Assembly (NCBI GenBank): GCA_031414435.1
Contig: JANNVN010000123.1
Coordinates: 1,158-65,157 of the forward strand
DNA: 64,000 bases
Origin: Gemmatimonadaceae bacterium
Lineage (GTDB): Bacteria > Gemmatimonadota > Gemmatimonadetes > Gemmatimonadales > Gemmatimonadaceae
Direction: 5' to 3'
Numbering within the stretch: the stretch's first letter is position 1; every line of letters begins with the position of its first letter. This document shows positions 2,395-58,930 of this stretch, in pieces. Below the pieces are notes generated by a model. It was given only the letters and a program-made list of their open reading frames with translations, searched no databases and was not told where the DNA came from. Position numbers and translations under genes: made by a program.

Positions 2395-2397
2395 TGG

Positions 2398-3642: not shown

Positions 3643-3654
3643 GTGGCAGGGAGG

Positions 3655-10872: not shown

Positions 10873-10907
10873 GAATTTGTCGTTCCTAGTAACGTTATAA
10901 GGTTATG
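10873..10907. promoter_or_regulatory. isolated AT-rich patch with 8-bp palindrome TAACGTTA, about 310 nt upstream of the PKS operon; candidate operator or promoter element
   Basis: The sequence gaatttgtcgttcctagTAACGTTAtaaGGTTATg is a sharp AT island in otherwise high-GC non-coding DNA. TAACGTTA (10890-10897) is self-complementary and GTTAT is repeated 3 nt apart. No convincing sigma70 -35/-10 spacing is present. Confidence 0.2.
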
Positions 10908-11215
10908 TGCGGCACAACGGAAACCACGATCTGGTCGATGATGCATGGCGTGACCGATTTCTGCCAGAAGTCTCCAGTCGGCCGTTCGATCGGGAACACC
11001 ACGGATGTCCTGCGGCCCGTCGCTGTAGACCGCAAGGATGTGTCAGGCAATCAGCGCCGTGTGGCCTGTGTCGCCCGGTCGAGGGGCGTGACTGTGGTCC
11101 CAGACGCTCTGCGGGTCGGGAGCCTCGGGCGCCATCGTGGCATCTCGCGCGGGATGGCGCTCCGCGGAAGGGCCATGTCTGAGACGTCTCGTGTGCGTCC
11201 GCGTGAGTTTGCGCC

Positions 11216-14200
11216 ATGAGCACGACGCCCTCGGCGTCGCCGCGCGCGATCGCCATCGTTGGGATGAGCGGGCGATTTCCGGGGGCCCGGTCACTGGAGC
11301 AGTTCTGGCAGAATCTGCGCGACGGTGTGGAGTCCCTCGACACCTTCACCGAGGCTGAACTCGACGCTGCCGGCGTTGACGCGACGACTCGAGCACTCCC
11401 CGGCTGGGTGCCGCGCGGGACGGTGCTTCAGGACGCCGACCACTTCGACGCGGCGTTCTTCGGCTATTCGCCGCGTGAAGCACAGATCATCGATCCGCAG
11501 CAGCGCGTCTTTCTGGAATGCGCGTGGGAAGCGATGGAGCACGCCGGCTACGCGCGCGAGCCGGACGGGGCGATGGTGGCGGTCTACGCCGGCTCGAGCA
11601 TCAACAGCTACGTCTACAGCCAGCTGCTCCCGAACCGGGAGCTGCTGGCGTCCGTCGGCGGCTATCAGGTCATGCTCGGGAACGACAAGGATTTCCTCAC
11701 CACTCGTGCGTCATACAAACTCGATCTGCATGGACCGAGCATGGCCATCCAGACGGCATGCTCGACCTCCCTGGTGGCCGTGTACGTGGCGTGTCAGGCG
11801 CTGGTGCGTCGCGAGTGCGACATGGCGCTGGCCGGTGGTGTGTCAATCACGTTCCCGCAGCGCACCGGGTACCAGTATCAGGAGGGGATGATCTTCTCTC
11901 CGGACGGGAGCTGCCGGCCGTTCGACGCGGATTCGAAAGGAACACGCGCCGGCGCCGGGGCAGGCATCGTTGTCCTGAAGCGCCTCGAGGATGCACTCGC
12001 CGACCGGGATACGATTCACGCAGTGATTCTCGGCTCGGCCATCAACAACGATGGCGCCGGTAAGGCAGGGTACACAGCCCCGAGCATCGATGGCCAGATG
12101 GAAGTGATCGCGACCGCCCAGGCGCTGGCGGGCGTGTCGGCTGAGAGCATCTCGTACGTCGAGGCACATGGCACGGCAACACCACTTGGTGATCCGATTG
12201 AGATTGCGGCCCTGACGCGCGTGTTCCGCGAATCGACCGACGCGCGCGGATTCTGCACGATCGGTTCGCTGAAGGCCAATCTCGGGCATCTCGATGCCGC
12301 CGCCGGCGTGGCGGGGCTAATCAAGACCGTTCTGGCGCTCCAACACCGCGAACTGCCGCGTCAATTGAACTTCCGCGCGCCAAATCCGCAGTTGCAGCTG
12401 GACACGTCGCCATTCCGTGTTGCAACAACGTGCGAGCCGTGGGCTGCCGGTGCAACGCCGCGCCGCGCGGGCGTGAGCTCGTTCGGGATTGGCGGGACCA
12501 ATGCGCACGTGGTGCTCGAAGAAGCGCCGGCTGCGGCGCCGAGCGCCATCGCCCGGTCGCATCACCTCGTGGTCCTCTCGGCCAAGACCGCCGAGGCCCT
12601 CGACGCCGCGACGACGAATCTGGTCGGGTATCTGCGGCAGGATGCCGCGGCATCGCTGGCGGATGTCGCGTACACGTTGCAGGTCGGGCGCCGTCCGTTC
12701 CCGCATCGGCGCAGCGTCGTCGTCTGTGATGCCGCCGAAGCGATCACGGCCCTCAGCGCACCCGATCGCGCACCGGTGACGAGCAACGTGCACGAAGGAG
12801 CGTCGCGACCGGTGGCCTTCCTGTTCAGCGGACAGGGCAGTCAGCACGCGGGGATGTGTGCGGAGCTGTATGCACATGAACCGGCGTTTCGTGCCGCGGT
12901 CGACCGCTGCGCGGACATCCTGCACCCGCACTTCGGTCGCGACATTCGCGAACTGCTGCGCGATGGCACTGATCAGGAACTGAGCGAGACCGCGGTCGCG
13001 CAGCCGCTGCTGTTTGTGACGGGGTACGCGTTGGCCGTTCTCTGGATGTCGTGGGGCGTCCAGCCGAGCGCCATGCTGGGCCACAGCATCGGCGAGTACG
13101 TCGCGGCCCATCTGGCGGGCGTCTTCTCGCTCGAGGATGCCCTGATGCTGGTGTCCGCGCGCGGCCGCCTCATGCAGGAGATGCCTCCAGGCGAAATGCT
13201 CGCCGTGCGCCTCGCAGCAGATGCACTGACGCCTCGCCTGGGCCCCGGCGTTGAAATCGCTGCGATCAACGCTCCTGCGATGTGCAGTGTGTCAGGCACG
13301 AGGGAGGCGATCGCGGCGCTGGCGGCGCAGTTGGAGCAGAGCGGCATCGAGCATCGACCACTGCATACGTCACACGCATTTCACTCGGCGATGATGGAAC
13401 CGGTGCTCGCGCCGTTTCGCGCGCAGGTGGCGCGTGTGTCCCTGTCGGCGCCGCGGATTCCGTACGTGTCGAATGTGACTGGGACCTGGATCCGTCCAGA
13501 GCAGGCGACGTCGCCCGACTACTGGGCGTCACATCTGCGCGGCACAGTGCGATTCGCAGAGGGCGTTGCGACGCTGATCGCTCATCAGTCAGTGCAGCTC
13601 CTCGAGGTCGGTGCGGGGAATGCGCTGGCCTCGCTGACGCGGCTGACGCTCGGCCGCGACGGAGCGTCGCGCGTGACCGCATCGTTGCCGCATCCCCGTG
13701 AAGCGCGACGTGAGCTCGAGACGATGTTGGATGCGGTGGGTCGACTGTGGGTCAGCGGCGTTGCGGTTGATTGGGCGGGTATCAATGCAATGGCGTCGCT
13801 ACGGCGTGTACCACTGCCGACCTACCCGTTCGAGCGCAAGCGTCATTGGGTCGACGCCCCGAAGCCTGCGCCAGACGCCGTCGCGCGCTTGTACCGGCGC
13901 GAGGCGCTGGATGACTGGTTCTACACGCCCACATGGACGCGCGCACCGCTGGCTCGGAATCGACTGCTGCCGCTGGACGGCACGTGGCTCGTATTCGGCC
14001 GGGCGGATGCACTCGAGGCGGCCGTTCTCGAGCGGCTGCGCGCGCGCGGTGCGTCAGTCATCGCCGTCGGCGCAGGGGAGCAATTCACGTCGGGTGACGA
14101 GCGATTCGTGGTGCGCGGTGCGGACCCGCGCGACTACGAATCACTCATCCGCACACTTCGGGACAAGGGGGCTGATCTTCGCGGTGTCATTCATCTCTGG

Positions 14201-15778
14201 AATGTGGGGCCGATCGGGAATGCGAATGCTGCCCGGGATACCTCGCTTCACGCGATCGCCGCACTCGGGCGGGCGCTGCTGATCGAATCACCGGCGGCGT
14301 CGTTGCGACTGGTGGTTGGGACGACCGGCGCGCAGAGCGTGCATGGTGAGCCTGTGCAATACGCGGATCGTGCGCTGTCGACCGGCCCGGTGCTGGTACT
14401 GCCGATGGAGCACGCCGGCGTAGGTGCGAGTACGATCGACCTCGATGGCGCCACGGCCCGCGTTGGCTGGCGTGACGAGGCGGCACGACAGCTCGTCGAA
14501 GAGGCGTCAATTGACGACGCGGACGCGCTGGTTGCGGTCCGGTCCGGCGAACGCTGGGTCCGTCGATTCGTCGGTGGGGCACTCCCGAGAACCGAGACCC
14601 TGGCAGCGACGTTGACGCACCGCGGTGTCTGTCTGGTGACCGGAGGACTTGGCGGTATCGGCGTGACTCTGGCCGAGTGGCTGGCTCGCAATGTGTCGGC
14701 ACGGTTGGTTCTGACCTCTCGGACGGCACTGCCGAACCGTGGCGAGTGGGATGCGTGGCTGGCGGCGCACGACGGGTCGGATCCGACGTCGCAGCGCATC
14801 CGGGACATCGAGCGAATCGAGGCGGCTGGTGGCGAGGTTGTCGTGATCGGTGCGGACATTGCAAGCGTGACGGAAATGCGGAGTGCACTGGCCGCTGTCG
14901 AGGCTGGTTGGGGGCCTGTCACGAGTGTGATTCACGCCGCTGGCATTGCTGGTGACGGGTTGCTGGCGCTTTCGAGTCGCGATCATGCAGAAGAGGTGAT
15001 CAGTGCCAAGGTCGCGGGGTTGGACTGCCTCGTGGCTGTGCTCGGCGATCACGCCATGGAATTTGTGGTGCTGTGCAGCTCGATCAACGTGGTCGGCGGG
15101 GTCGCGGGGACTTACGCATACACGGCTGCCAACGCGTACCTCGACGCCTTCGCGGTGTCGGCGCAGCGGCCGGTGGGATGGCGGACGGTCTCGATTGCGT
15201 GGGATGCCTGGCGGGATGTCGGGATGGCGTCGAAGGTTGTGGTCCCGGATGCCATGCGCGCGGCTCGAGCGGCGTACGTCGCGGCCGGTATTTCACCGGC
15301 CGCTGGTGCGGACGCCTTCGCGCGCTGCCTCGAAAGCGGGTTCGCTCAGCAGGTCGTGTCGCCGTATGACATCGAGACGGCGCTGATCGATCGTCGGCGA
15401 TTACGCTCGGCCGCGCCCACAATCGTCGAGACCCGTCGCGCCGAAGCCCATGCGGCAGAAGTGTCGTCGGAGGGCAGGCCATCGTCTGCACACGTCGCCC
15501 CGGCAGGGGAAGTGGAGGAACGGCTGGCGTCAATCTGGGAGGAGCTCTTGGGCGTTACGCCGGTCGGAGTGCACGACAATTTCTTTGATCTGGGTGGTCA
15601 TTCGCTGCTGGCCACCCGTGTACTGGCGCGGATCGACAGCACCCTGGGCGTGCGCCTGCCGCTGCGAGACGTGTTCAGCGCGCCGACGATCCGGCTGCTT
15701 GGCGGCCTGATCGAGGCGCAGCTGCAGTCGGCGGCTGTTGCTGCGCATGGCGGTGAACGCGAAGAGTTTGAGTTGTGA
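11216..15778 (+). CDS. type I PKS, KS-AT(malonyl-type)-KR-T, with an NRPS-type carrier domain
   Basis: KS motifs: QTACSTS (Cys codon 11759-11761), EAHGTATPLGDPIE, KANLGHLDAAAG. AT motifs: GHSIGE (Ser codon 13085-13087) and HAFHS. Linker PLPTYPFERKRHW. KR motifs: VTGGLGGIG (about 14638-14661), YAYTAANAY, HAAGIAGDG. Carrier: DNFFDLGGHSLLATR (Ser codon 15602-15604). The KS begins at about residue 10, so there is no loading or docking region. C-terminal tail ...GGEREEFEL. Confidence 0.93.
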   Translation: MSTTPSASPRAIAIVGMSGRFPGARSLEQFWQNLRDGVESLDTFTEAELDAAGVDATTRALPGWVPRGTVLQDADHFDAAFFGYSPREAQIIDPQQRVFLECAWEAMEHAGYAREPDGAMVAVYAGSSINSYVYSQLLPNRELLASVGGYQVMLGNDKDFLTTRASYKLDLHGPSMAIQTACSTSLVAVYVACQALVRRECDMALAGGVSITFPQRTGYQYQEGMIFSPDGSCRPFDADSKGTRAGAGAGIVVLKRLEDALADRDTIHAVILGSAINNDGAGKAGYTAPSIDGQMEVIATAQALAGVSAESISYVEAHGTATPLGDPIEIAALTRVFRESTDARGFCTIGSLKANLGHLDAAAGVAGLIKTVLALQHRELPRQLNFRAPNPQLQLDTSPFRVATTCEPWAAGATPRRAGVSSFGIGGTNAHVVLEEAPAAAPSAIARSHHLVVLSAKTAEALDAATTNLVGYLRQDAAASLADVAYTLQVGRRPFPHRRSVVVCDAAEAITALSAPDRAPVTSNVHEGASRPVAFLFSGQGSQHAGMCAELYAHEPAFRAAVDRCADILHPHFGRDIRELLRDGTDQELSETAVAQPLLFVTGYALAVLWMSWGVQPSAMLGHSIGEYVAAHLAGVFSLEDALMLVSARGRLMQEMPPGEMLAVRLAADALTPRLGPGVEIAAINAPAMCSVSGTREAIAALAAQLEQSGIEHRPLHTSHAFHSAMMEPVLAPFRAQVARVSLSAPRIPYVSNVTGTWIRPEQATSPDYWASHLRGTVRFAEGVATLIAHQSVQLLEVGAGNALASLTRLTLGRDGASRVTASLPHPREARRELETMLDAVGRLWVSGVAVDWAGINAMASLRRVPLPTYPFERKRHWVDAPKPAPDAVARLYRREALDDWFYTPTWTRAPLARNRLLPLDGTWLVFGRADALEAAVLERLRARGASVIAVGAGEQFTSGDERFVVRGADPRDYESLIRTLRDKGADLRGVIHLWNVGPIGNANAARDTSLHAIAALGRALLIESPAASLRLVVGTTGAQSVHGEPVQYADRALSTGPVLVLPMEHAGVGASTIDLDGATARVGWRDEAARQLVEEASIDDADALVAVRSGERWVRRFVGGALPRTETLAATLTHRGVCLVTGGLGGIGVTLAEWLARNVSARLVLTSRTALPNRGEWDAWLAAHDGSDPTSQRIRDIERIEAAGGEVVVIGADIASVTEMRSALAAVEAGWGPVTSVIHAAGIAGDGLLALSSRDHAEEVISAKVAGLDCLVAVLGDHAMEFVVLCSSINVVGGVAGTYAYTAANAYLDAFAVSAQRPVGWRTVSIAWDAWRDVGMASKVVVPDAMRAARAAYVAAGISPAAGADAFARCLESGFAQQVVSPYDIETALIDRRRLRSAAPTIVETRRAEAHAAEVSSEGRPSSAHVAPAGEVEERLASIWEELLGVTPVGVHDNFFDLGGHSLLATRVLARIDSTLGVRLPLRDVFSAPTIRLLGGLIEAQLQSAAVAAHGGEREEFEL

Positions 15779-15945
15779 CACAGCAGACCACAGGCGAACT
15801 CCTCGACCAATTGCGCGCACTCGATGTCCGAGTGCGCGTGGAAGACGGACGGCTCCGCATCAACGCGCCCAAGGGGAGTCTGACGCCGGCGCTCGAAGCC
15901 GCGCTGGTCGCGCACCGGGAAGCTCTGGTCGCGGCGCTCGAAGAC
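15775..15945 (+). other. TubC-type N-terminal (beta-hairpin) docking domain of the NRPS
   Basis: GELLDQLRALDVRVRVEDGRLRINAPKGSLTPALEAALVAHREALVAALE fits the pattern L..L...GV.LW.EG..LR..AP.G.LT.EL...L..HK.E....L that I recall for TubC_N-type docking domains. Confidence 0.7.
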
Positions 15946-18900
15946 CAGGGAATCGGCGCCGGTCGTCCCGCGCTGGCGCCCGTGCTGCGGTCCGGTCCCC
16001 TGCGGCTGTCGTTTCTGCAGGAGCGCTTGTGGGTGATCCAGCAGCTGCAGCCGGATTCCACGGCATATAACCTCGTGATGTTGGCGCAGGAACAGGACGG
16101 CGTCGAACTGCCGCTCCTGCAGGCGGCGATCCGCGGTGTCGTCGAGCGTCACGAGATCCTTCGTGCTCGGTTTGCATCCGAGGGCGGCGCGCCGCACGTG
16201 CGCATCACGGTGGCAGAAGAGACGCGGGTCGTGTTCCGTGATCTGCGGGCGCTGGCACGCGACGAACAGCAGGCGATCATCAGCCAGGCTGTTCCCGTCG
16301 CGACACGCGAACCGTTCGATCTGGCCGCGGAGGCGGCGGTCCGGTTCACGATTCTGCAGACCGGTGACCGGCGATGCGCGTTGCTGATCGCTGCGCACCA
16401 TATCGCCCTCGACTCGTGGTCGCTCCCGGTGCTGCTCCGCGATCTGCTGATCGAGTATGAGACGCAGCAACGCGGCGCTGGCGACGCGCGGCCACCCTTG
16501 ACGCTGCAGTACGTGGACTATGCCCACTGGCAGCGTGAGACCATGGTGGCGGCCGGCGCGCAAGCGCGCCTCAAGTACTGGACAGACCGCCTTGCCGCCT
16601 TGCCGCAGCTGAGCACTTTCCCCACCGACCGGCCGCGTGCCATCGACGCGGTCGGCACGGGAGCGGTGTACGATTTCGCGTGGTCGCCGACGCTGTATGC
16701 CGGGGTTCGTGCATTGGCGCGTGAGCTCGACGCCACCGTGTACATGGTGCTATTGGCGGCGGTGGCCGTTCTGCTGACGAGATGCACGGCGCAGTCGGAT
16801 GTGGCGATCGGCAGTCCACTCGGGACACGGGACCTGTCGGAGCTGGAAGGGATGCTCGGGCCAATCCTGAATCCGCTCGTGACGCGCTTCGACGTGAGTG
16901 ACGATCCGACCTTTGCCGGAGTGGTTCAACGCGCCCGGGATGGCTTGCTGGATGGGCACTCACATCAGGACGTCCCATTTGAAGCGCTGGTGCAAGCGCT
17001 CAACCCCGCACGTTCGCTCGGGCATTCACCACTGTTCCAGGTCGCGGTCGTACTGCACAATGCTCCTGGCACGGGCGAAACACCGTCGATCCACAGCGGT
17101 GGTGCGATCTATGATCTGACCGTCTTCGCCGTGGAGCGCGCAGGCGCGCTGTACTGTTCGTTCGAGTATCGCTCAGATCTGTATGACGAGGCAACCATCG
17201 CGCGCCTCAGCACGCAACTTCAAACCGTGCTGAGTGCTGCAGTGCGCGACCCACAGCTAACGGTCTCGGGCATTCCGCTGCTCCCGGAGTCCGACGCAGC
17301 GCTGCTGATCGAGGCGACGAATCCCGCACCGATTGCCCTCGACCGGACGACGGTCGTGGAGCAGTTCACCCGGACCGTCGCCGCCAACGCTGCTCGCGTT
17401 GCTGTAGTGGCGTCGGACGGCACGTTCACCTACGCGGAAATCGACCGGCGCGCCTCGATCGTTGCTGAGGTCTTGCGCGCGGCAGGTGCCGGTCGCGGTT
17501 CGTTCGTCGCCCTCGCCACAGATCGTTCCAGCGCGACGGTGGTCGGTGCGCTCGGCATCCTCAAGTCGGGCGCCGCGTACGTGCCGGTCGACGTCTCGTA
17601 TCCGGCGGATCGTGTGGCGTTCATGCTCAGCGACAGTGGCGCGCGACATGTCGTGGCGACGCGGGAGAGTCTGCGGTCACTGCCCGGCCTCGGGTCGGGC
17701 GCGACACTGGTCCTGGTGGACGAAGTGGTCGATGCACCACCGTCCGCGGCGGCGGCACCGATGCCCCCCGTGCGCGAGGACGACATCGCCTACCTGATGT
17801 ACACCTCCGGTTCAACCGGAACGCCGAAGGGTGTGCTCGTCCCGCATGGGGCCGTCAGCAGCTTTCTGGGTGCGATGCGCTTACGCCCGGGGATATCGGT
17901 CGATGACGCGGTGCTGTGCGTCACATCGATGTCGTTTGATATCTCGGTCTTCGAAGTGTTCCTGCCACTGGTGACCGGTGCACGGACGATCATCGCATCG
18001 CGCGAGGAGGCCAGCGATGGACACCGAATGGCGCACCTGATTGGATCCGCCAGAGCCACAATTGTCCAGTCCACGCCGTCCGGCTGGCGACTGCTGATGC
18101 AGGCGAACTGGTCTGGCGGGCCGGAGATCTCGGCGATCGCCGGCGGCGAGCCGATGCCACAGGATCTGACCAACTGGCTCGGGGAGCGGGTCCGGTGGGT
18201 CTGGAACGGGTATGGTCCCACGGAAGCGACGGTGTACTCGTCGATGGCGCTCCTTACCGGCGCTGACATGATCACCATCGGCACGCCCGCCGCGAACACG
18301 CGAATTTATGTCCTCGATACGTCCAACCACGTCTTGCCGATCGGAGTGCCAGGCGAAATTTGCATCGGCGGCGATGGGGTCACACGCGGATACCACAACC
18401 GACCGGAACTGACGGCTGACCGATTCGTTGCCGACCCGTTCGTTTCCGGCGCCAGGATGTATCGCACCGGCGACGTCGGGCGTTGGCGTGCCGATGGCCG
18501 CCTCGAGCACCTCGGCCGGATCGATGGGCAGGTGAAGGTGCGCGGCTATCGGATCGAGACCGGTGAGATCGAGACGGCGCTTTCACAGCACCCGGGTGTG
18601 CGAACCGCAGTCGTCGGTGTCCGCAATGCCTCAGCGGACGATCCGCGACTGGTGGCCTGGGTGCAGCTCGAGCCGGAGGGCGATTGCACCACGAGCGAAT
18701 TGCGGCGGTACCTCCGCCAGACGTTGCCGGAGTTCATGATTCCATCGATGCTTATCATGGTCGAGTCGTTTCCATTGACGCCGAACGCCAAGATTGACAA
18801 GCGGGCACTACCTGATCCGTTTCTCAACGGGAGCGCCGCATCGCCGGAGTACATGGCGCCGACGACCCCGACCGAACGACTGATCGCGGCCGTCTGGTCG

Positions 18901-26207: not shown

Positions 26208-26213
26208 CGCGCA

Positions 26214-50800: not shown

Positions 50801-51549
50801 TCAGCATCAACTGGGGGCCGTGGGCAGAGATCGGCGCGGCGGCGGAGCGTCACGTCACCGGTGGCAGCTTCCTGAAGCAGATCGCGCCGAAGGAAGGGCT
50901 GCAGGCCCTGGAGGTGGCGTTGCGTCTGACGCCCGATGGCCGTGCATTCGCGCGCTCGCAGGTCGCCGTGCTCGCTGCGGACTGGTCGCAGATCACCACC
51001 GGTGAGAACGCGCTGCTGCAGTCGCCGCTGTTCAGGCTCCTCGCAACGCTCACGGTCGGATCCACGATGAGGGTACGTCGTGCGGCGGGGCAGCGGCCAG
51101 CTACGCTTTCCCTGCGCGAGCGACTGCAGGCCACGGCCGCGAACCGCCGTCGGGCCGCGTTGGTCGATGAAGTGCGACAACTGACGGTGCGCGTACTTGG
51201 CATTCAGCAGGTGGGAGCACTCGATGTGCACGAACCATTGCGACAGCTCGGGCTGGATTCGCTGATGGCGGTCGAGCTCCGGAATCTTCTCGGCAAGACG
51301 GTTGGTCGGACACTGCCAGCAACGATCACGTTCGACCATCCGTCGGTGCACGCGCTGGTGGAATACCTTGGGATCGAAGTCTTCGGCGAGGAGTTGTCGC
51401 TGCAGCGCGCTCCGGCGCTTGTATCCGAGGTACCGTCTTCACGTGCCCCCGTGCCGGCCACCGCGAACTTCGATGACATGACGGATGATGAACTCGCCGT
51501 GCGCCTTGCGCAGCGGCTGGATGGCCTACGAACCGAGGACGATTCATGA
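44842..51549 (+). CDS. type I PKS, Ndock-KS-AT(malonyl-type)-DH-cMT-KR-ACP
   Basis: N-terminal FSPKRLALLADELQRRV. KS: DTACSSS (Cys 45463-45465). AT: GHSLGE (Ser 46810-46812), HAFHS. DH: HPLVD...HRIFGRLLVPSPA (His 47719-47721), FGPRF, LEACFH. cMT: LRILEVGAGTGSTS (about 49147-49178). KR: ITGGLRGLG, HAAGLLDDG. ACP: LGLDSLMA (Ser 51259-51261). No ER motifs. Tail MTDDELAVRLAQRLDGL. Confidence 0.93.
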   Translation: MQDFLSRISHFSPKRLALLADELQRRVQTLEQAQRAPIAIVGIGCRFPGGADTPEQYWELLSRGVDAISEVPASRWDINAYYDPDPDAPGKMSTRFGGFLAGVDQFDPYFFGISPREAQRMDPQQRLLLEVTWEALEHAGLSPDGLSETKTSVFVGMSASDYFQVMHDGGLASFDAYTASGTAHSIASGRLSYLLGTRGPSVSIDTACSSSLVAIHEAVQSLRRGESDIALAGGVNLILRPEITVALTKSHMMAPDGRCKAFDARADGFVRGEGCGMLVLKRLADAEAAGDTVIALIRGSAANQDGRSNGLTAPNGPAQEAVLRDALLDAQLEGRQVQVVEAHGTGTSLGDPIEVRALAKVLGVDRVRSLPIVVASVKANIGHLEACAGVAGVIKMALSLQHGMVPAQQHFVEPNPFIPWDELPVRVPTNLESWPTTHDGPRIGGVSSFGFSGTNVHMLLEAAPVRAVHDAELERPRHLIAISARTDRARAVLAAEYRAVLASGRMSLADFAHTANVGRAAMPQRMAVIAGSADEAVALLDGFASGESSPGAVTGTAAVRAPEVAFLFTGQGSQYPGMTRSLYGTQPAFRDALDACAELLRPLLPVPLLPLLFPDDVAGSLLDDTVYTQPALFAVEYALAAMWQSWGVRPTAVMGHSLGEFVAACVAGVITLPDALRLVTERGRLMGALPRDGAMVAVMADEARVRSLADAHQGEVSIAAVNGPQNIVVSGRATAIESIISSAASHGISTTRLHVSHAFHSRLMAPMIEAFRQVAESITYHPPAIDVISNVTGERFGIMTASAEYWCRHVRAPVLFARGVQTLAGMGCTAFIEVGPHPTLLSLARQAVPDDGRLWLPSVRRGGDDWSQVLESLALLYVHGAAIDWSGFDASYPRQRQILPRYPFQRERFWVDTAPRERPELASAERLHPLVDREVLQAATPERVFEARLSTARFAYLSDHRIFGRLLVPSPALMAMVHAVSAEAFRSPAITVSDFSMRSPIPLDDGQVVTTQLLLGESVNGSMPFRVASLPAGRESWTTCATGSIERAGSPPPDLDLRQLQQQNPTSIDIAGYYAWLASLELEFGPRFRGIAALTHGVNSALALITTPADLDVREYALHPAVLEACFHVVGAALRTQDRVVDKPFLLSYVERMTIHRPLPTSFWTHVALDGDAEHAMQAGMARAVITLLDETGAVLALFEGVQLQRMLVRPMFETSLLPAVQQMLHEISWIPGPPADLPFPTPRALATVVAPRIRIVAADNGLTEYADFSRSLDRLCTSYILDAFVALGAEWHAGSRFDTLGLQARLGVLSRHERLFARLLGILAEDGILRRDSDQWEVIAPPEFNDPELAYGKVHAAYPSGHSTLVLTRRCARELAAVLRGSTDPIALLFPGGSLTEMEQLYQTSPPARCYNQLLADSLRPIRDTWPGHRPLRILEVGAGTGSTSAFVLPMFAGKEIEYTFTDVSPLFLNRAREKFADVPGMQYALLDIGSDPVTQGFTSGHYDVVIGANVMHATPDLRRTMSHVRSLLVPGGVTVLLEGTSPQRFGDLTVGLLDGWWAFTDTDRRHYALMPRPAWATLLRDAGFASSSTIVEADAGPVLEEQAIFVAQAPGEPVPATKRHWLMLPDSSGIAAQLATRLEDAGDDVTTIAGDDLSPISAALSATNRRGAPITGVLHLGALDVQLTDDTSADTLWRGQQRLLSQALQTVQTLAADASPVPLWFVTRGAQSAALGDAANAAQATLWGFSHVVAIEHPELRCRRLDLDANAPIDTMLDGIVSELRSLSTEDQVALRGDERLLRRLAAYAPASAPRIGFAADRTYLITGGLRGLGLRVAEWLVEQGVRSLALVGRRAPDASAEQVMTRLRGRGATVVPMRGDVSLEADVIGVLDQIRETMLPLSGVVHAAGLLDDGVIAAQNWSRFERVMGAKVLGSWHLHRLAGPLDFLVLFSSGASVAGSAGQSNHAAANAFEDGLAWYRQARGQPTVSINWGPWAEIGAAAERHVTGGSFLKQIAPKEGLQALEVALRLTPDGRAFARSQVAVLAADWSQITTGENALLQSPLFRLLATLTVGSTMRVRRAAGQRPATLSLRERLQATAANRRRAALVDEVRQLTVRVLGIQQVGALDVHEPLRQLGLDSLMAVELRNLLGKTVGRTLPATITFDHPSVHALVEYLGIEVFGEELSLQRAPALVSEVPSSRAPVPATANFDDMTDDELAVRLAQRLDGLRTEDDS

Positions 51550-54500
51550 CCGAACCACAACAACCCGACTACCGCGCGCTTCTCACGCGATCGCTGGTAG
51601 CTATCGAAAAGCTGGAAGCGAAACTCGCGGCCGCAGAACATGCCAGGTCCGAGCCGATTGCGGTTGTCGGCATGGCGTGCCGCTTTCCCGGTCATGCGAA
51701 CGACCTCGAAGGCTATTGGTCGCTGCTCTCGCGCGGCGGGGACGCCGTCACGGTGGTGCCGTCGCATCGATGGGACGCCGAGGCGTCGTTTGATCCGGAT
51801 CCTGACGCCCTCACGAAGAGCTATACCAAGTGGGGCGCGTTCATCGATGACGTCGAGACGTTCGACGCAGCGTTCTTCGGCATTTCTCCGCGCGAGGCGG
51901 TGTCGCTGGATCCTCAGCACCGGCTCCTGCTCGAGGTCACATGGGAAGCACTCGAGCACGCCGCGATCGCACCGTCATCGCTGGCAGGGACACGAGCGTC
52001 GGTCTTCATTGGCATCTCGACGATCGACTACGCCAACATGATCGGGGACATTGTCGGATCGCGGAACGGCGATGCATATGCTGCGTCAGGATCGGCGCAC
52101 AGCATCGCCTCCGGCCGCCTGTCGTACTTCCTTGGCGCGCACGGACCGAACTACGCAGTCGACACGGCATGCTCATCATCGGTGGTTGCGATTCACGGTG
52201 CCATTCAATCGTTGCGGAACGGTGAAACCGGGCTTGCAATCGCAGGCGGTGTGAGCTTGACGCTGTCCAACCTCGGTTCGATCCTGACGTCGCGCGCACG
52301 CATGATGTCATTCGATGGACACTGTAAGACCTTTGACGAGTCGGCCGACGGATACGTGCGCGGTGAGGGCTGCGGGATGGTGGTTCTCAAGCGACTGTCC
52401 GATGCTGAACGTGACGGCGACCGGATTCTCGCCCTGTTGCGAGGCTCGGCCATCAACCAGGATGGTCGCAGCAGCGGCCTGACCGCGCCGAATGGGACGG
52501 CGCAGGAGGCCGTGATCCGCGATGCGCTCGCCAACGCGCGTCTGACACCGCAGGACATCAGCGTGATCGAGGCGCATGGCACTGGAACACCGCTTGGCGA
52601 CCCCATCGAGATGAAGGCGCTCGGTGCGGTCTTCGGTGCGCGATCGAAGGACGAACCGCTGCTGGTCGGTTCGGTGAAGACGAATATCGGGCATCTCGAA
52701 GCGGCGTCCGGCATTGCGGGCATCATCAAGGTGATCCTCGCAATGCAGCACCGCGAGGTGCCACCGCACCTGCACTTCAGCACGCCCAATCACCTGATTC
52801 CCTGGGACACGATCCCGGTCCGGGTGCCCACGGCGTCGATGCCGTGGAGTACGCCGCCAGGAGTGCCGCGTCGGGCTGGCGTCAGCTCTTTCGGCTTCAG
52901 CGGGACGAACTCGCATGTGATCCTCGAAGAGGCGCCGGCGCCGCTCACGACGATGGAGGTCGGGCGTGTTGCGCGGGCGCAAGTTCTCGTGCTCTCTGCG
53001 CAGACCAGCGGCGCGCTGCGCAGTCAAGTCGCGAACTACGCCGGGTTCCTCGAGCGTGAAGAGGTGCCGCCCGTTGGGGATGTGGCATTCACGGCGGCGG
53101 TCGGCCGTTCGCACCTGCCGGAGCGCCTCGCGCTGGTTGCCGAGAGCGCATCGGCCGCTGCTGCGCAGCTGCGGCAGTTTCTCGACGACGAAACGACACC
53201 TGGTGTCACTGCGCGCCGGTTTACCTCCGGCACCGCACCGGAGATCGGATTTCTGTTCTCGGGTCAGGGCGCCCAGTATCCCGGTATGTCGCGCGAATTG
53301 TACGAGACGGAGCCGGTGTTCAGGAGCGCGCTGGATGCCTGTGCGGCCATCGTTGACCCGCTGCTGCCATCGCCGCTGCTCCCGGTCATCATGGGCACGG
53401 CGGAGTTCAGCGAGCAGCTGGATGACACCGCGTTCACGCAGCCGGCGCTCTTCGCGGTCGAGTACGCGCTCGCGCAGCTCTGGCGATCATGGGGCGTCAC
53501 GCCTGCGGTGGTGATGGGGCACAGCGTTGGAGAGTACGTCGCAGCCTGTCTGGCCGGCGTGTTCTCGCTGGTCGACGGACTGCGATTGATCGCTGCCCGC
53601 GGTCGGCTGATGAGCGCGCTGCCGCGCGACGGTACAATGGTCGCCGTGTTTGCACCGCGCGCGCGCGTCGCGGCGGCGCTGGCGGGATTCGAAGCCGACG
53701 TCGACATCGGCGCCGTGAATGGTCCGACGAATACCGTGATCTCCGGGCGGGCATCAGCGATCGATGTGATTCTCCGCGCGCTGGCATCCGACGGAATCGA
53801 GTTCGCCCGGCTGAATGTGTCCCATGCGTTCCATTCACCGATGATGGCGCCCATACTCGACGAGTTTGAACGCATCGCCGGAACGGTGGCCTTCTCGCTG
53901 CCGGACATCGGACTCGTGTCAAACGTCACGGGTCGCCTGGCGGGCAGTGAGATCACGACGGCCGCATACTGGCGTCGGCATGTGCGCGATGCCGTCCTCT
54001 TCACTGACTCGATTGCCACGTTGCACGCGGAGGGCATCCACACCTTCCTCGAGATTGGCCCGGCACCGATTCTGAGCGGGATGGGACAACGATGCGAGCG
54101 CGGCAACGACGCCGTCTGGCTGTCCTCGATGAAAAAGGGTCGAAGCGATCGTGAGTCGATGCTCGAAAGTGTCGGGCGTCTGCACCTCGAAGGGCAGCCG
54201 ATCGAATGGAAGGCCGTCTGCGACGCCGGCGCGCGTCGCGTCGAACTGCCGTCGTACCCGTTCCAGCGTGAGCGGTACTGGTTCGACAGCACGCCACGCC
54301 AGACCCTGACGCCGGGCGTCGCGGGACGCAGCACCGGTCACCCGCTTCTCGGCGATCGCGTTTCGAGCCCGGTGCTCCTCTTCCAGACGTCGCTCTCGAT
54401 CGCCAACACGCCATGGCTCTCCGATCACCGGATCTACGATGCTGCGCTGCTTCCGGGTGCGGGGTTCATCGAACTTGCCCTCGCGGCTGCCAGGGAAGTG

Positions 54501-57500
54501 ATCGGGACGGAGGACGTTGCACTGTCAGATGTCTCATTGCGCGAAGGACTGACCGTTCCGGAAGCCGGAACCGTCACGGCGCAAGTCGTCGCGACACCAC
54601 GTGACGATGGGACCTTCCTGATTCAGGTGTTCAGCGAGGTGCTGGCAGATGCGGAGAGCGATACGGCTGCAACCTGGCGTACGCATCTCGAAGCAACCGC
54701 GTCGCCATCGTCCACCGCAGCACCGGTGAGCGGCGTTCCGTCGCTGGCGGCCGAGGGCCGGGTCGACAAGGATGTGAACGCGTACTACGACCACCTCACC
54801 GCTCAGGGTGCCCTCTACGGTCCCGGGTTTCGCTGTATCACGTCCATCGGGCGTTCAAACGGAGAAGTGGTGGGCCGTATGGAGCTGCCCGAGGCCCTCG
54901 GTGACGATCGACTCCTGTTCATGGTGCACCCCGCGATGCTCGATGCCGCCATTCAAATGGTCGGCGTCGGGCTGCCGTGGGCCGATGACCCGCAACAGAC
55001 TGACGATGTGTTCCTCCCCGTCAGTGTCGCGAGCTATCGCGTGTTCCAATCCGCGCCAACCGTCGCCTGGTGCCACATCCACGCGTTGCGGGTCAATCCG
55101 ACCCGGAGCAGTATCTCGACAGACTTTCTGCTCATCGATCCTTCGGGTGCAACGATCGCCGCAGTCGAAGGGCTCGAGTTGCACCGTGTGTCACGTGCGG
55201 CGATGCAGAGGGCTGCGGACAAACCCGTGCGACCCGATTGGATGCTGGAAGTTGACTGGCAGGCCGCACCGCTCGACGGCGCGGCGCAGCCGGTTACCGG
55301 TAACTGGTTGCTCGTGAGCGATGGTGCACCGTTGGCGGCAGAGCTGGCCGCGCAGTTGACCGAACGAGGAGCATCGGTCTTCGTCGCCGAGCACAGCGCG
55401 CAATTCACGGACACTGCGCAGGGCTGGACTCTCGACGTCACTGACGCGTCGCACTTCCAGCGTCTCTTCGCCGAGGCGCCGCCGCGCGTCGGTACACCGT
55501 GGACCGGTGTCGTCTCGATGGTGGGCACGCCGACGGATCCAGAGGACCTCGACGGCGCAGCGCTGTCCCGGTTGCATGCGCATCGTGTCGGGGCGCTGCT
55601 GGCACTGGTTCCCGTGATGGCCGACAGCGGTGCAAAGCTCTGGATCATCACACGCGGGACGCAAGCCGTCGGCGATGTCGTCCCTGACCTCGTCGACGCG
55701 CCGATCTGGGGGCTCGCGAACGTGATCGCCAGCGAGTACCCGGCGTTGCGCGTGGTCCGCATCGACCTCGATACGACGGTGCGCCGCGACACCGCGGCGC
55801 TGCTGGCCGCCGCCGTGACCGTCGCCGACAACGAGGATCGCGTGGCGCTGCGTGGCACCCAGCGTTACGTGGCTCGGTTGGCACCGGGGGTGTTGCGCAA
55901 CGTCGAGGGACTTCCGCCACGACGCCTCGAGATCATGGAGCGTGGGATTCTCGAAAACCTCGCGCTGAATGTCGTGCCGCGTGAGGCCCCCGGCCCCAAT
56001 CAAGTCGAGATCCGTGTGTACGCCACCGGGCTCAACTTCCGCGATGTGCTCAATGCCCTGGGGATGTATCCCGGCGACCCGGGCCCACTGGGCAACGAGT
56101 GCTCGGGTGTCATCACCGCCGTTGGTGAAGGGGTCGATGATCTCTTCGTGGGTGACGAGGTGGTCACGATGATCGATCGCAGTTTCGCAACCTACGTCAT
56201 CGCGCTCGCGATCCAGACGGTACGCAAGCCGGCGAACCTGAGCTTCGTCGAAGCCGCGACGATTCCTGTCACGTTTCTCACCGCAGAGTATGCACTCAGC
56301 ACGCTGGGCGGCATGAAGCGCGGCGACAAAGTGCTGATCCATGCGTCGACCGGTGGAGTTGGCATGGCAGCGATTCAACTCGCTCGCCGCGCCGGTGCCG
56401 AGATCTTCGGAACCGCCGGCACGCCGGCCAAGCGCGCGATGGCGCTGGCGCTCGGCGTGGACCATATCTCCGACTCGCGCTCGCTGGTGTTCGCCGAGGA
56501 CTTCGACCGCGTCACCAACGGCTCAGGTGTCGACATCGTCCTGAACTCCCTTGCCGGCGACTTCATTCCCACCAGCCTGCGACTGCTCAAGCGCGGCGGC
56601 CACTTCATCGAAATCGGCAAGACCGGTATCTGGGACAAGGAAACGGTCGCCGAGTCGTTTCCCGGCATACACTATCATCCCCTCTATCTGGGCGAGATCG
56701 CCCTCGCCGAGCCACAGTTCACGCACGACATGCTGCAGCGGCTGATGGATGATTTCGCGACTGGTGCCCTCACGCCGCTGCCGCAGAAGGTGTACCCGCT
56801 GGAGCGCGCGGAGGAAGCCTTCCGTTTCATGGGCCAGGGGTTGCACACCGGGAAGATCGTCATCACGCAACACCGGACACCGGAGGTCCGTCCGGATGCG
56901 AGCTACCTGATAACCGGTGGCCTCGGCGGACTTGGCGTCGCCTGTGCTGAGTGGCTGGTCGGCCTTGGTGCACGAAACGTGGTGCTGCTCGGTCGGCGTG
57001 CGCCGTCTGCGAGCGTGGAGGTACAGCTCGACGCGTTGCGCGCCACTGGCGTCACGGTGCTGGTGGCGTCATGCGATATCGCGGTTGAGAGCGATGTGGC
57101 GGCGGTGCTGGCGCAGATTGCCGCGTCGTTGCCACCACTTCGGGGCATCCTGCATGCCGCGGGTGTGGTGGACGACGGCATGCTGCCCGAGCAGACGCTT
57201 GACCGATTTGCACGGGTCATGGCTCCCAAGGTGCTTGGCACCTGGAACCTCCACCGGCTCACGCGCCAGCTGCCGATCGACTTCTTCGTGCTCTTCTCCT
57301 CCGGCGCGGCGCTGCTCGGATCGCCGGGACAGAGCAACTATGCAGCAGCAAACAGCTTCATGGACTCGATGGCCTTCGTGCGTCGGGCCGAGGGACGGCA
57401 TGCGCTGAGCATCAACTGGGGGAGCTGGTCCGAGGTCGGCATGGCTGCTGAAGTCGGCGACGCACATCGTCGACGCTGGGCGGCACAGGGACTCGGCATG

Positions 57501-58016
57501 ATCACACCGGACAAGGGTGTGCGAATGCTGCAGGATCTGCTGCAGCGTTCCGAGTCGCCGAATGTGGCGGCACTCCCGATCGACCGGGCGAAGATGCCAC
57601 GCAGCCTCGGACCGCTGTACGAGCGCCTGGTTGCGCCCGTGGCGAAGCAGACGGCGCAGGCGATCGGTGGTGGCGATGTGCTGAAGCGGATCACTGATGC
57701 AGGACCCGAGGATCGCGCACCAATTCTGACCGCATTCCTGACCGAGCAGATCGTCCGCGTGCTTGCGCTCTCGTCGGCGAGTCGCGCCCGGCCCGATCTG
57801 TCACTGATGGATATCGGGATGGATTCACTCACGGCGATGGAGCTGAGGAATCGCGTGCAAGGTGCGGTCAAGGTTCGACTGTCGGTCGCCGACCTGCTGC
57901 AGGGCCCAACCATCAACGAACTCACGGTCAGTATCCTGAGTGAGCTTGCACTGGGCGATGGCGGCGCGCTCGCCGCGGTCGAGTCGGGGCCGGTATGGGA
58001 GGAAGGTTCGTTGTGA
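51546..58016 (+). CDS. type I PKS, Ndock-KS-AT(malonyl-type)-DH-ER-KR-ACP; ends at the ACP with no release domain
   Basis: N-terminal YRALLTRSLVAIEKLEAKL. KS: DTACSSS (Cys 52170-52172). AT: GHSVGE (Ser 53523-53525), HAFHS. DH: HPLLGDR...HRIYDAALLPGA (His 54426-54428), YGPGF, LDAAIQ. ER: LNFRDVL, LIHASTGGVGMAAIQLAR. KR: ITGGLGGLG, HAAGVVDDG. ACP: IGMDSLTA (Ser 57825-57827). Only about 62 aa follow the ACP Ser. Tail ...ESGPVWEEGSL. Confidence 0.93.
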   Translation: MTEPQQPDYRALLTRSLVAIEKLEAKLAAAEHARSEPIAVVGMACRFPGHANDLEGYWSLLSRGGDAVTVVPSHRWDAEASFDPDPDALTKSYTKWGAFIDDVETFDAAFFGISPREAVSLDPQHRLLLEVTWEALEHAAIAPSSLAGTRASVFIGISTIDYANMIGDIVGSRNGDAYAASGSAHSIASGRLSYFLGAHGPNYAVDTACSSSVVAIHGAIQSLRNGETGLAIAGGVSLTLSNLGSILTSRARMMSFDGHCKTFDESADGYVRGEGCGMVVLKRLSDAERDGDRILALLRGSAINQDGRSSGLTAPNGTAQEAVIRDALANARLTPQDISVIEAHGTGTPLGDPIEMKALGAVFGARSKDEPLLVGSVKTNIGHLEAASGIAGIIKVILAMQHREVPPHLHFSTPNHLIPWDTIPVRVPTASMPWSTPPGVPRRAGVSSFGFSGTNSHVILEEAPAPLTTMEVGRVARAQVLVLSAQTSGALRSQVANYAGFLEREEVPPVGDVAFTAAVGRSHLPERLALVAESASAAAAQLRQFLDDETTPGVTARRFTSGTAPEIGFLFSGQGAQYPGMSRELYETEPVFRSALDACAAIVDPLLPSPLLPVIMGTAEFSEQLDDTAFTQPALFAVEYALAQLWRSWGVTPAVVMGHSVGEYVAACLAGVFSLVDGLRLIAARGRLMSALPRDGTMVAVFAPRARVAAALAGFEADVDIGAVNGPTNTVISGRASAIDVILRALASDGIEFARLNVSHAFHSPMMAPILDEFERIAGTVAFSLPDIGLVSNVTGRLAGSEITTAAYWRRHVRDAVLFTDSIATLHAEGIHTFLEIGPAPILSGMGQRCERGNDAVWLSSMKKGRSDRESMLESVGRLHLEGQPIEWKAVCDAGARRVELPSYPFQRERYWFDSTPRQTLTPGVAGRSTGHPLLGDRVSSPVLLFQTSLSIANTPWLSDHRIYDAALLPGAGFIELALAAAREVIGTEDVALSDVSLREGLTVPEAGTVTAQVVATPRDDGTFLIQVFSEVLADAESDTAATWRTHLEATASPSSTAAPVSGVPSLAAEGRVDKDVNAYYDHLTAQGALYGPGFRCITSIGRSNGEVVGRMELPEALGDDRLLFMVHPAMLDAAIQMVGVGLPWADDPQQTDDVFLPVSVASYRVFQSAPTVAWCHIHALRVNPTRSSISTDFLLIDPSGATIAAVEGLELHRVSRAAMQRAADKPVRPDWMLEVDWQAAPLDGAAQPVTGNWLLVSDGAPLAAELAAQLTERGASVFVAEHSAQFTDTAQGWTLDVTDASHFQRLFAEAPPRVGTPWTGVVSMVGTPTDPEDLDGAALSRLHAHRVGALLALVPVMADSGAKLWIITRGTQAVGDVVPDLVDAPIWGLANVIASEYPALRVVRIDLDTTVRRDTAALLAAAVTVADNEDRVALRGTQRYVARLAPGVLRNVEGLPPRRLEIMERGILENLALNVVPREAPGPNQVEIRVYATGLNFRDVLNALGMYPGDPGPLGNECSGVITAVGEGVDDLFVGDEVVTMIDRSFATYVIALAIQTVRKPANLSFVEAATIPVTFLTAEYALSTLGGMKRGDKVLIHASTGGVGMAAIQLARRAGAEIFGTAGTPAKRAMALALGVDHISDSRSLVFAEDFDRVTNGSGVDIVLNSLAGDFIPTSLRLLKRGGHFIEIGKTGIWDKETVAESFPGIHYHPLYLGEIALAEPQFTHDMLQRLMDDFATGALTPLPQKVYPLERAEEAFRFMGQGLHTGKIVITQHRTPEVRPDASYLITGGLGGLGVACAEWLVGLGARNVVLLGRRAPSASVEVQLDALRATGVTVLVASCDIAVESDVAAVLAQIAASLPPLRGILHAAGVVDDGMLPEQTLDRFARVMAPKVLGTWNLHRLTRQLPIDFFVLFSSGAALLGSPGQSNYAAANSFMDSMAFVRRAEGRHALSINWGSWSEVGMAAEVGDAHRRRWAAQGLGMITPDKGVRMLQDLLQRSESPNVAALPIDRAKMPRSLGPLYERLVAPVAKQTAQAIGGGDVLKRITDAGPEDRAPILTAFLTEQIVRVLALSSASRARPDLSLMDIGMDSLTAMELRNRVQGAVKVRLSVADLLQGPTINELTVSILSELALGDGGALAAVESGPVWEEGSL

Positions 58017-58930
58017 CCACGCGAGTCGAATCGTCGGCGCACGACGCGATATCGTCGGCGCCCGATCGGCGTCAGGCGATGGTGTTGATGACGGCGTTCG
58101 CGGTACTCTGGGCCGTGCTCGAAAATGAAGTCGGTGTGCGACTCCGTCGGCCGTATGACCTGACGCAGATCGTATGGTGTCGGTACGCCAGTCACCTGCT
58201 GATCGCTGCCATGGTCTGGGGGCTGCGCCGACCGTCGCGATTGTGGGTCACGTCGCGGCCGCGACTGCAAGTCGGGCGATCATTCCTGATGCTGGTGATG
58301 CCACTCAGCTTCGCTTTTGCGATCGCGAGTGGACTGGGAGTTGTCACCGCGTGGGCGGTGTTCTGGTGCGCGCCGCTGCTGATCCTCGCGTTCGCACATT
58401 TCTTGTTTGGCGAGAGAGTGCCGGCCTGGGCCTGGCTGCTGACATTGCTCGCATCTGTTGGCGCGATAGCCATGATCGGACCACCGGGATTACCAGCGAT
58501 GCGTTCGCTGGTATGGCCGCTGGTGATGGCAGGATCGTTCGCGCTCTACGTCGTCCTGACGCGGCAACTGCGGAGCGAACCGCTCTCTGCAAACATGTTC
58601 TACACGGCGGTGGGCGTGATCATCCCGCTCAGCGTCTACGTCCCACGCGTCTGGGTGACACCAACACCGCACGATGCCATCATCCTCTTCGGTATCGGTG
58701 CCGTAGGCTTTCTCGCACTGGCCGCGCTCGATCGCGCCGCGGAGCGTGCCCCGGTTTCGATGACTGCCGCCTTCCTCGCGATGCAGGTCGCCGCGACAGT
58801 GCTGATCGGGTGGGCCCGACAGACCGTGAGCATGACTGGATTGACGTTGGTCTGGCTCGCGGTGACAGTGATCAGTCTCGCGGCCTTATGGCGGTTCCTC
58901 CCTGGAATCCCCGGAACCGATTCGCGCTGA
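58013..58930 (+). CDS. EamA/DMT-superfamily permease (putative exporter)
   Basis: GTG 58013 overlaps the PKS stop (GTGA); an alternative ATG (MVLMTAF...) lies about 66 nt downstream. The protein is polytopic and hydrophobic with about 10 predicted TM segments. It shows the two-fold EamA-like repeat (…FGERVPAWAWLLTLLASVGAIAMIGP… and …LTLVWLAVTVISLAALW…). Confidence 0.7.
   Translation: MTTRVESSAHDAISSAPDRRQAMVLMTAFAVLWAVLENEVGVRLRRPYDLTQIVWCRYASHLLIAAMVWGLRRPSRLWVTSRPRLQVGRSFLMLVMPLSFAFAIASGLGVVTAWAVFWCAPLLILAFAHFLFGERVPAWAWLLTLLASVGAIAMIGPPGLPAMRSLVWPLVMAGSFALYVVLTRQLRSEPLSANMFYTAVGVIIPLSVYVPRVWVTPTPHDAIILFGIGAVGFLALAALDRAAERAPVSMTAAFLAMQVAATVLIGWARQTVSMTGLTLVWLAVTVISLAALWRFLPGIPGTDSR

Follow-up and report, generated by a model that had tools for sequence, protein, structure and literature searches.

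The window examined here is a 64,000-nucleotide stretch of a Gemmatimonadaceae genome (assembly GCA_031414435.1, contig JANNVN010000123.1) in which twelve co-directional open reading frames (ORFs; g1 to g12, 11216-58930, + strand) form a 47.7-kb cluster of cis-acyltransferase (cis-AT) polyketide synthase (PKS) and nonribosomal peptide synthetase (NRPS) genes with seven PKS modules and one NRPS module. Our interpretation, to which we assign a probability of roughly 0.6, is that this is a permuted assembly line from which a further NRPS module (NRPS1) has been deleted, that the chain would pass from g6 through g11 to g1 and then g2, and that it would be released by two adjacent proteins of alpha/beta-hydrolase fold, g3 and g4.

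The order of action was read from the docking elements at the protein ends and from the gene order in relatives. Proteins g7 to g11 carry N-terminal coiled coils, and C-terminal tails that match these are found on g6 to g10; an N-terminal dock is absent from g1 and g6, and g2, which ends in a bare PCP tail, offers no dock partner for g6. The N-terminus of g2 is a PF18563 (TubC_N) domain (49.4 bits against a cut-off of 26) which, at the level of sequence, makes a TubC-type docking pair with the acidic g1 tail EREEFEL and is predicted to bind it. Two types of tail precede such docks in relatives. The KS-AT-KR-T proteins end in REE[FI][ED][LF] (...REEFEL in g1 of the window, ...REEFDL and ...REEIEF elsewhere), and the last PKS of the line ends in ...WEEGSL (g11 of the window and of its Gemmatimonad orthologue) or ...WEEGTL (Hydrogenophaga); it is the WEEG[ST]L type that precedes the dock of NRPS1. 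A Hydrogenophaga contig, with identities to the window of 56% for g11, 53% for g1 and 46% for g12, has the PKS genes first, the last of them with the tail GEWEEGTL, then two DMT transporter genes, NRPS1, a KS-AT-KR-T gene with the tail DDREEIEF, a dock-C-A-PCP gene and finally hyd2 and hyd1, as we call the g3-like and g4-like genes, respectively; a colinear order like this one was seen in many metagenome loci. Because the docking tails and the colinear homologues agree, we infer the order g6 to g11, (NRPS1), g1, g2, hydrolase pair, and the window operon would then be a circular permutation of the biosynthetic order.

An initial annotation of this DNA had taken gene order as assembly order. In such a literally colinear line g1 and g2 would act first and make a 3-hydroxyacyl-amino acid starter, g6 to g11 would extend it, and the type II thioesterase or the hydrolases would release it from g11; the order of the genes speaks for this, as does the lack of an N-terminal dock in g1, which would be normal for a first module. 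We consider it very unlikely, given that g6 also has no dock and finds no partner on the bare tail of g2, that in Hydrogenophaga and many metagenome loci the g1 and g2 homologues come between the PKS genes and the hydrolase pair, right next to the latter, and that the motif at the end of g11 is one that leads to a TubC_N dock and does not mark a terminus. By the docking tails and the Hydrogenophaga homologue, g1 and g2 would be the last two modules.

In every Gemmatimonad relative compared, an NRPS gene (NRPS1, about 1660 aa) lies directly upstream of the g1 homologue, and L096, in which the N-terminal 400 residues of g1 are 85% identical to those of the window, also carries it. Of the metagenome loci, 63 extend at least 1.5 kb upstream, and in 54 to 59 of these an A-PCP directly precedes the g1-type KS. 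The window has instead 800 bp between a phosphoesterase gene and g1. A tblastn search with the NRPS1 proteins of 12 relatives found colinear pieces there in three different frames (10682-10789 in frame 1, 10795-10899 in frame 3, 10905-11003 in frame 2), with E values reaching 6e-15 and a blastn identity of 71-72%. The core motifs are damaged (YGPTE to CGTTE, GGE to CGD), as in the comparison of MCGTTETTIWSMMHGVTD...VGRSIGNTT with MYGPTETTIWSTTHRVTD...IGHPIGNTT, and about 4.4 of the 5.0 kb of the NRPS1 region are gone. Judged from these alignments, the window line is a deletion derivative in which NRPS1 is reduced to a frameshifted A-domain relic. This thirteenth gene (about 10673-11018) had been missed in the initial annotation, which had itself named pseudogenisation of the locus as a finding that would tell against it, and the relic touches on that point. 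An exact 24-mer of the relic had no match in the JGI metagenomes. Some relatives have ABC-2-type (Wzm/Wzt-like) exporter genes directly upstream of NRPS1 (L096, 116-1015; L009, 2448-4555); as the closest relative, L096, has such an exporter before NRPS1 and the window has none, the deletion may exceed NRPS1.

In the species-representative genomes scanned, relatives of g4 are encoded in at least 411 places. The closest are from metagenome-assembled genomes (MAGs) of Gemmatimonadaceae, at 63% identity, and others are found in Hydrogenophaga, Piscinibacter, Rhizobacter, Labilithrix, Corallococcus, Planctomycetota, Acidobacteriota and Polaribacter. On the Gemmatimonadaceae MAG contig CAVUDW010000002.1 (loci L010 and L090) we found an orthologous cluster which corresponds to the window gene for gene and has the same modules plus NRPS1, with identities of 74% (g1), 65% (g2), 74% (g3), 63% (g4), 66% (g5), 68% (g6), 81% (g7), 70% (g10), 76% (g11) and 63% (g12); matched points in g7 and g10 are 19,486 bp apart on this contig and 19,481 bp apart in the window. 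The NRPS1-bearing orthologue is located at about 255-304 kb on contig_4617 of the Gemmatimonadaceae MAG MFD02832.bin.1.4. In other relatives the head genes are kept and the PKS part varies. The cluster had been said to have no counterpart. This stands in so far as literature searches returned no characterised cluster, no Gemmatimonadota PKS product and no matching lipopeptide; it does not stand for uncharacterised sequences, where there is an orthologue at 63-81% identity and there are relatives in Burkholderiales and other phyla. By homology, the cluster is part of a large, uncharacterised and horizontally spread family.

The amino acids of the line were predicted from ten-residue A-domain codes, taken from an alignment in which the FDxS, GGE, YGPTE and Lys motifs served as anchors. 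The g2 code of the window, DIFQIGGVYK, has five of its ten positions as in DILQLG[LM][IV]WK and conservative exchanges at the others, and the terminal codes of the Gemmatimonad orthologues (DILQIGGVYK or DILQIGAVWK) grade into the canonical glycine code, which we take to be DILQxGxxxK. That pattern was found in 51 of 61 terminal A domains from all phyla, and the NRPS1 code in L094 is DILQLGMIWK. We regard the g2 A domain as probably glycine-type; the earlier assignment of a 3-hydroxy C2 unit and one amino acid to g1 and g2 agrees with our own, with the addition that the code allows the amino acid to be named, as a probable glycine. Given the glycine-type codes of both NRPS1 and the terminal module, the family head group would be acyl-Gly-(3-hydroxy C2)-Gly, reduced to acyl-(3-hydroxy C2)-Gly in the window, where NRPS1 is missing. 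In other phyla, L030 and L033 being examples, DALW[LFY]GGTFK is a frequent code of the A domain that precedes the KS-AT-KR-T; it is Val-type and suggests that in those lines Gly comes after a statine-like unit.

The hallmarks of modular type I cis-AT PKSs are present in all seven modules: the alignment shows Cys-His-His in every KS domain, GHSxG in every in-module AT domain and the phosphopantetheine Ser in every carrier domain. The AT motifs are RIDVIQ...VASH in g6 (methylmalonyl), HAFH in g1 and g8 to g11, and YAFH after a malonyl-type first motif in g7. An LDD-type KR motif is found in g7, g9, g10 and g11; the KR of g6 is without the diagnostic second Asp and has the A-type Trp, and that of g1 retains the Asp and is therefore B-type. 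The ER, C-methyltransferase (cMT) and carrier-domain motifs are intact. The NRPS module of g2 has HHIALDS, YGPTE, GQVKVRG, Lys517 and GGHS, and its A domain scores 412 bits for TIGR01733 (cut-off 317); its C-domain motif is thus not HHxxxDG, with His, His and Asp kept and Gly replaced by Ser. The DH of g10 (48196-48225) reads HPAVLEACFH, with Glu for the catalytic Asp, where the L090 orthologue reads HPAVLDACFH. These results agree with the literal chemistry put forward in the initial annotation, which was of four methyl branches (the methylmalonyl AT of g6 and three cMT domains), one hydroxyl, one keto group and one trisubstituted olefin, the last of which hinges on the g10 DH still working. 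Its statement that all catalytic residues are intact is borne out for the KS, AT and carrier domains and has to be withdrawn for the C domain of g2, the DH of g10, and g3, which is without a nucleophile. There is no loading module and no terminal thioesterase (TE) or R domain: g6 and g1 begin with a KS, and g11 and g2 end in a carrier domain and a short tail.

The proteins encoded after g2 had been noted earlier as two odd alpha/beta hydrolases; they do have this fold, but the note missed a conserved Arg/Cys pair that is most likely a TE substitute. The Gly-x-Ser-x-Gly motif and Ser-His-Asp triad of serine alpha/beta hydrolases are found in neither protein, the motif being G-I-R-L-G in g3 and G-L-C-S-G in g4. 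The Cys nucleophile of g4 was present in 121 of 121 homologues, alongside an invariant D264-H265. The Arg of g3 is invariant in a 26-sequence alignment that reaches down to 41% identity and is found in 82 of 88 locus-derived sequences; g3 has no conserved C-terminal His. The best NCBIfam match was TIGR03101 for g3 (89.7 bits, E 2e-25, cut-off 202.75) and TIGR03100 for g4 (87.0 bits, E 1e-24, cut-off 168.45), and four pair members from other phyla are also below the cut-offs (hyd1 at 72-89 bits for TIGR03100, hyd2 at 86-116 bits for TIGR03101). According to these matches the pair is a distant relative of the exosortase-A hydrolases 1 and 2; as the scores of g3 and g4 lie far below the curated cut-offs, we place the pair in a sister family of the TIGR03100 and TIGR03101 proteins and in neither of the two.

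The surroundings of the pair were analysed in 89 loci, scanned with the window's own domains. There, hyd2 is directly upstream of hyd1 in 78 of 90 hyd1 copies. For 70 of the 90, the end of a carrier domain lies under 400 bp upstream of hyd2, at a median distance of 50 bp, and a TE-like match of any kind occurs in only 10 of 86 loci; the pair is also present in NRPS-only lines. In this genomic context, g3 and g4 likely replace the missing TE as the off-loading device. Some loci (L019, L022 (Hydrogenophaga), L017, L029 and L039) have two convergent assembly lines lying tail to tail, each closed by its own hyd2-hyd1. In the distant relatives L004 (10861-13896) and L008 (11016-20296) the pair is followed by genes of the exopolysaccharide (EPS) and PEP-CTERM type, echoing the exosortase-A link: a polysaccharide deacetylase with DUF3473, acyltransferase_3, GT2, Poly_export, GNVR and an AAA_16 ATPase. 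Literature searches found no study of this hydrolase pair, and TIGR03100 only once, as an annotation in an EPS cluster of B. cenocepacia.

In the scheme we propose, g6 would begin the chain without a loading domain, and g7 to g11 would extend it by way of matched coiled-coil docks into a reduced, tetramethyl-branched chain. In the family the ...WEEG[ST]L tail of the last PKS would pass the chain on to the Gly-NRPS (NRPS1) at its beta-hairpin dock; g1 would act next and add the 3-hydroxy C2 unit, and its ...REEFEL tail would deliver the chain to the dock of g2, which would add glycine. There being no TE, R or terminal C domain, g3 and g4 would move the glycyl thioester from the last PCP to Cys116 of g4, from which it would be hydrolysed or transferred; g3, with Arg at the position of the nucleophile, is presumably a non-catalytic partner. 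From their families, g5 would be an editing TE and g12 an exporter. The copy in the window would either be broken at the hand-over from g11 to g1 or make a shortened product, an N-(3-hydroxyacyl)glycine of about C23H41NO6 (427 Da) if propionate-primed and hydrolytically released; cross-docking of g11 directly onto g2 would give an N-acylglycine.

Several observations weigh against this scheme, the first of them concerning the hydrolase pair, whose role is drawn from gene context and active-site residues. Foldseek searches of the PDB with the AlphaFold2 models (pLDDT 84 for g3 and 78 for g4) returned only generic alpha/beta hydrolases, such as lipases and esterases (TM 0.5-0.74), and no specific functional relative; further down the list were DcsB and GrgF for g4 and LuxD (1tht) for g3. 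Sequence searches of the PDB with g3 and g4 likewise gave generic matches only. In some loci (L123, L124, L129, L131, L175 and L027) the pair directly follows the KS-AT-KR-T with no terminal Gly module, so glycine is not obligatory. It is also conceivable that g3 and g4 do not serve release, and supply g6 with a fatty-acyl starter as LuxD-type acyl-ACP transferases would, or act as an extra editing hydrolase. In the window g6, which is without a loading domain, does come straight after the pair and the type II thioesterase, and the LuxD match of g3 would fit; however, where clusters are colinear, a long distance separates the pair from the first PKS gene and the pair always comes after the last carrier domain, and it is also present in NRPS-only lines, which have no other release function. 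We therefore hold this explanation to be improbable.

The remaining points against our scheme concern the deletion. The g11 tail is still of its ancestral type, as is the g2 dock; the two types do not match and show no compensating change, so that the present line may transfer inefficiently, and the KS of g1 would have evolved for an N-acyl-glycyl chain and not for an alkyl chain. The dN/dS of g1 to g5 is 0.10-0.32, with no g1-specific acceleration or branch-length signal, but dS is saturated, and these values are therefore uninformative on the period since the deletion of NRPS1. As the source contig has a length of only 66 kb, an NRPS1 copy could sit elsewhere in the genome. Scans of both ends of the cluster for promoters and terminators found none, which leaves the cluster with no promoter-like site on its 5' side. 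The line may thus be a recently inactivated remnant, broken by the loss of NRPS1 and possibly of a 5' promoter and transporter genes, with ORFs that have not yet decayed. The frameshifts and ruined core motifs of the relic, the unadjusted docking elements, the Asp to Glu exchange in the g10 DH, which the orthologue does not share, the lack of a promoter-like site, and the ABC-2 exporter gene of L096 that has no equivalent at this place in the window would all be expected of such a remnant. On the other hand, the 47.7 kb contain no frameshift or premature stop, and the PKS/NRPS catalytic motifs checked are kept except in the g10 DH; the strong divergence of the relic suggests that the deletion is not very recent, and the rest is still intact. 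There is no acceleration of dN specific to g1, and the same-strand phosphoesterase gene could supply read-through transcription. Taken with these points, inactivation is a possibility to be reckoned with, but we do not think it probable.

Our preferred reading, of a permuted line that has lost NRPS1 and is released by g3 and g4, can be compared with several known systems. The tubulysin line is an example of the myxobacterial and cyanobacterial cis-AT PKS-NRPS hybrids with TubC-type docking. The window line resembles these hybrids in its cis-AT modules with embedded cMT, in the class-2-like coiled-coil docks between its PKS proteins, and in the PF18563 dock on the NRPS that receives the acidic C-terminal tail of the upstream PKS; it differs in having no cis TE, R or terminal C domain and no loading module, in its permuted operon, and in being known from genes alone, all of its sequence relatives being uncharacterised MAG genes. 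To our knowledge, no function has been assigned to the hydrolase 1/2 pair linked to exosortases. As in the exosortase A system, g4 and g3 are adjacent paralogues that match TIGR03100 and TIGR03101 in the same pairing, both pairs stand beside an adenylating enzyme and a carrier protein, and some relatives of g3/g4 adjoin EPS and PEP-CTERM-type genes; in contrast to that system, the window has no exosortase or PEP-CTERM genes, and the locus does not qualify as one of its kind.

For release in trans, an analogy can be drawn with the stand-alone alpha/beta hydrolases DcsB and GrgF, which off-load the TE-less carrier of fungal reducing PKSs and are among the fold matches of g4; LovG is a further trans-acting release hydrolase of fungal reducing PKSs. 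DcsB and GrgF use Ser and act alone, whereas the window would couple a Cys enzyme with an Arg-bearing, dead paralogue, and their match to g4 is at a TM of about 0.5 and 12-15% identity. Cys in place of Ser as the acyl-accepting nucleophile of a hydrolase-fold release catalyst is a feature that g4 has in common with the TE domains of the NRPSs ObiF and SulM, which reportedly act in cis, are of the PF00975 family and form strained beta-lactone or beta-lactam rings; unlike these, g4 is free-standing and Hydrolase_4-like, and the glycine terminus has no beta-nucleophile. Commendamide is an N-(3-hydroxyacyl)glycine lipid, and such lipids arise from fatty acyl-ACP by the action of one N-acyltransferase. 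The product predicted for g11 to g1 to g2 would share its head group, a 3-hydroxy fatty acyl amide-linked to glycine, and would differ in an acyl chain that is branched, keto-bearing and unsaturated and in being made by an assembly line.

The features of the cluster are listed in Table 1. The twelve ORFs lie where the initial annotation placed them, Pfam reproduced its domain strings exactly, and its description of a genuine cis-AT PKS/NRPS operon is supported; the host had also been guessed correctly, as g3, g4 and g12 have their nearest homologues in MAGs of Gemmatimonadaceae and Gemmatimonadales. We revised the starts of g5 (GTG 20830, giving 258 aa), g6 (ATG 21603) and g12 (GTG 58013, preceded by a GGAGGA ribosome-binding site), with which all junctions within the twelve genes are 4-bp overlaps or gaps of 0-6 bp, making a single operon of g1 to g12 plausible. 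The type II thioesterase motifs of g5 come with a PF00975 score far above the cut-off of 26.4. For g12 the PF00892 score is 26.4-26.5 bits (cut-off 28.2); its homologues, which are 46-99% identical, either carry PF00892 or are named as DMT transporters, and homologues are located within the Gemmatimonadaceae and Hydrogenophaga clusters.

Table 1. Features of the assembly line, with positions in the window
Feature	Position	Strand	Basis
NRPS1 relic, frameshifted A-domain piece (A4-A6 core region, Gly module)	10673..11018	+	tblastn, blastn
g1: KS-AT(malonyl, HAFH)-KR(B-type)-T(GGHS); no N-terminal dock; tail ...EREEFEL; predicted penultimate module	11216..15778	+	Pfam, motifs
g2: TubC_N beta-hairpin dock-C(HHIALDS)-A(DIFQIGGVYK, Gly-type)-PCP; predicted last module, no TE	15775..19104	+	Pfam, specificity code
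g3 (hyd2-like): weak Hydrolase_4 alpha/beta-hydrolase fold, Arg110 at nucleophile elbow (G-I-R-L-G)	19101..19886	+	NCBIfam, Pfam
g4 (hyd1-like): weak Hydrolase_4 alpha/beta hydrolase, Cys116 (G-L-C-S-G), D264-H265	19883..20833	+	NCBIfam, Pfam
g5: type II thioesterase (GHSMG, GDHFF)	20830..21606	+	PF00975 151.6 bits
g6: KS-AT(methylmalonyl-type, RIDVIQ/VASH)-KR(A-type, W motif)-ACP; no loading domain, no N-terminal dock; predicted first module	21603..26207	+	Pfam, motifs
g7: KS-AT(YAFH, malonyl-type)-DH-ER-KR-ACP; N- and C-terminal docks	26214..32789	+	Pfam, motifs
g8: KS-AT-cMT-ACP (predicted 2-methyl-3-keto unit)	32786..37210	+	Pfam
g9: KS-AT-DH-cMT-ER-KR-ACP	37207..44841	+	Pfam
g10: KS-AT-DH-cMT-KR-ACP; DH catalytic Asp to Glu	44842..51549	+	Pfam, alignment
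g11: KS-AT-DH-ER-KR-ACP; tail ...GPVWEEGSL	51546..58016	+	Pfam; 75.7% identity to L090 orthologue
g12: probable DMT/EamA-family transporter, 305 aa	58013..58930	+	EamA-like match, homologues

The GC content of the window is 64-69% (measured in 2-kb windows), and tRNA and Rfam scans of its whole length gave no matches. Upstream of the cluster is a MacB-type tripartite efflux set on the - strand (1669-6150), composed of an ABC ATPase (1669-2394), a HlyD-family adaptor (2398-3642) and a MacB_PCD/FtsX permease (3655-6150). It is followed by the gene for a 910-aa phosphoesterase-family protein with a beta-propeller region (7676-10408, +), which ends 265 bp before the NRPS1 relic and, being on the same strand as the operon, makes read-through transcription possible. 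Downstream are a DUF1080/3-keto-disaccharide hydrolase (61115-62188, +) and a 7TMR-DISM GGDEF diguanylate cyclase (62535-63995, -). On the orthologous contig the DMT gene is followed by a 413-aa PepSY_TM gene, and the window has a 413-aa ORF at 59728-60969; the comparison of the two gave a BLASTP E of 20 and the ORF has no Pfam match, and the idea of a siderophore reductase was dropped because they are unrelated.

A single orphan PKS/NRPS cluster in a MAG is ordinary, and the value of this one lies in the comparison. Together with its NRPS1-bearing orthologue, the window makes a natural module-deletion pair that bears on how far the loss of a module is tolerated without re-tuning of docking. 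A Gly module followed by the Arg/Cys hydrolase pair is a recurring end of TE-less lines in over 400 species of Gemmatimonadota, Burkholderiales, Myxococcota, Planctomycetota and others, and the pair is a candidate for a new mechanism of chain release and a functional handle on the exosortase-associated hydrolases. More speculatively, and with the odds clearly against it, the pair might be a new class of carrier-protein off-loader, in which a Cys-nucleophile alpha/beta hydrolase works together with a catalytically dead paralogue bearing Arg, and which transfers Gly-terminated lipopeptidyl thioesters to an acceptor and does not hydrolyse them; an envelope polymer, a lipid or a protein might serve as acceptor through an amine or hydroxyl group. 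If this were true, the pair would be the assembly-line counterpart of the unexplained exosortase-A hydrolase 1/2 genes, and the products of the family would be covalently anchored lipids and not free secondary metabolites.

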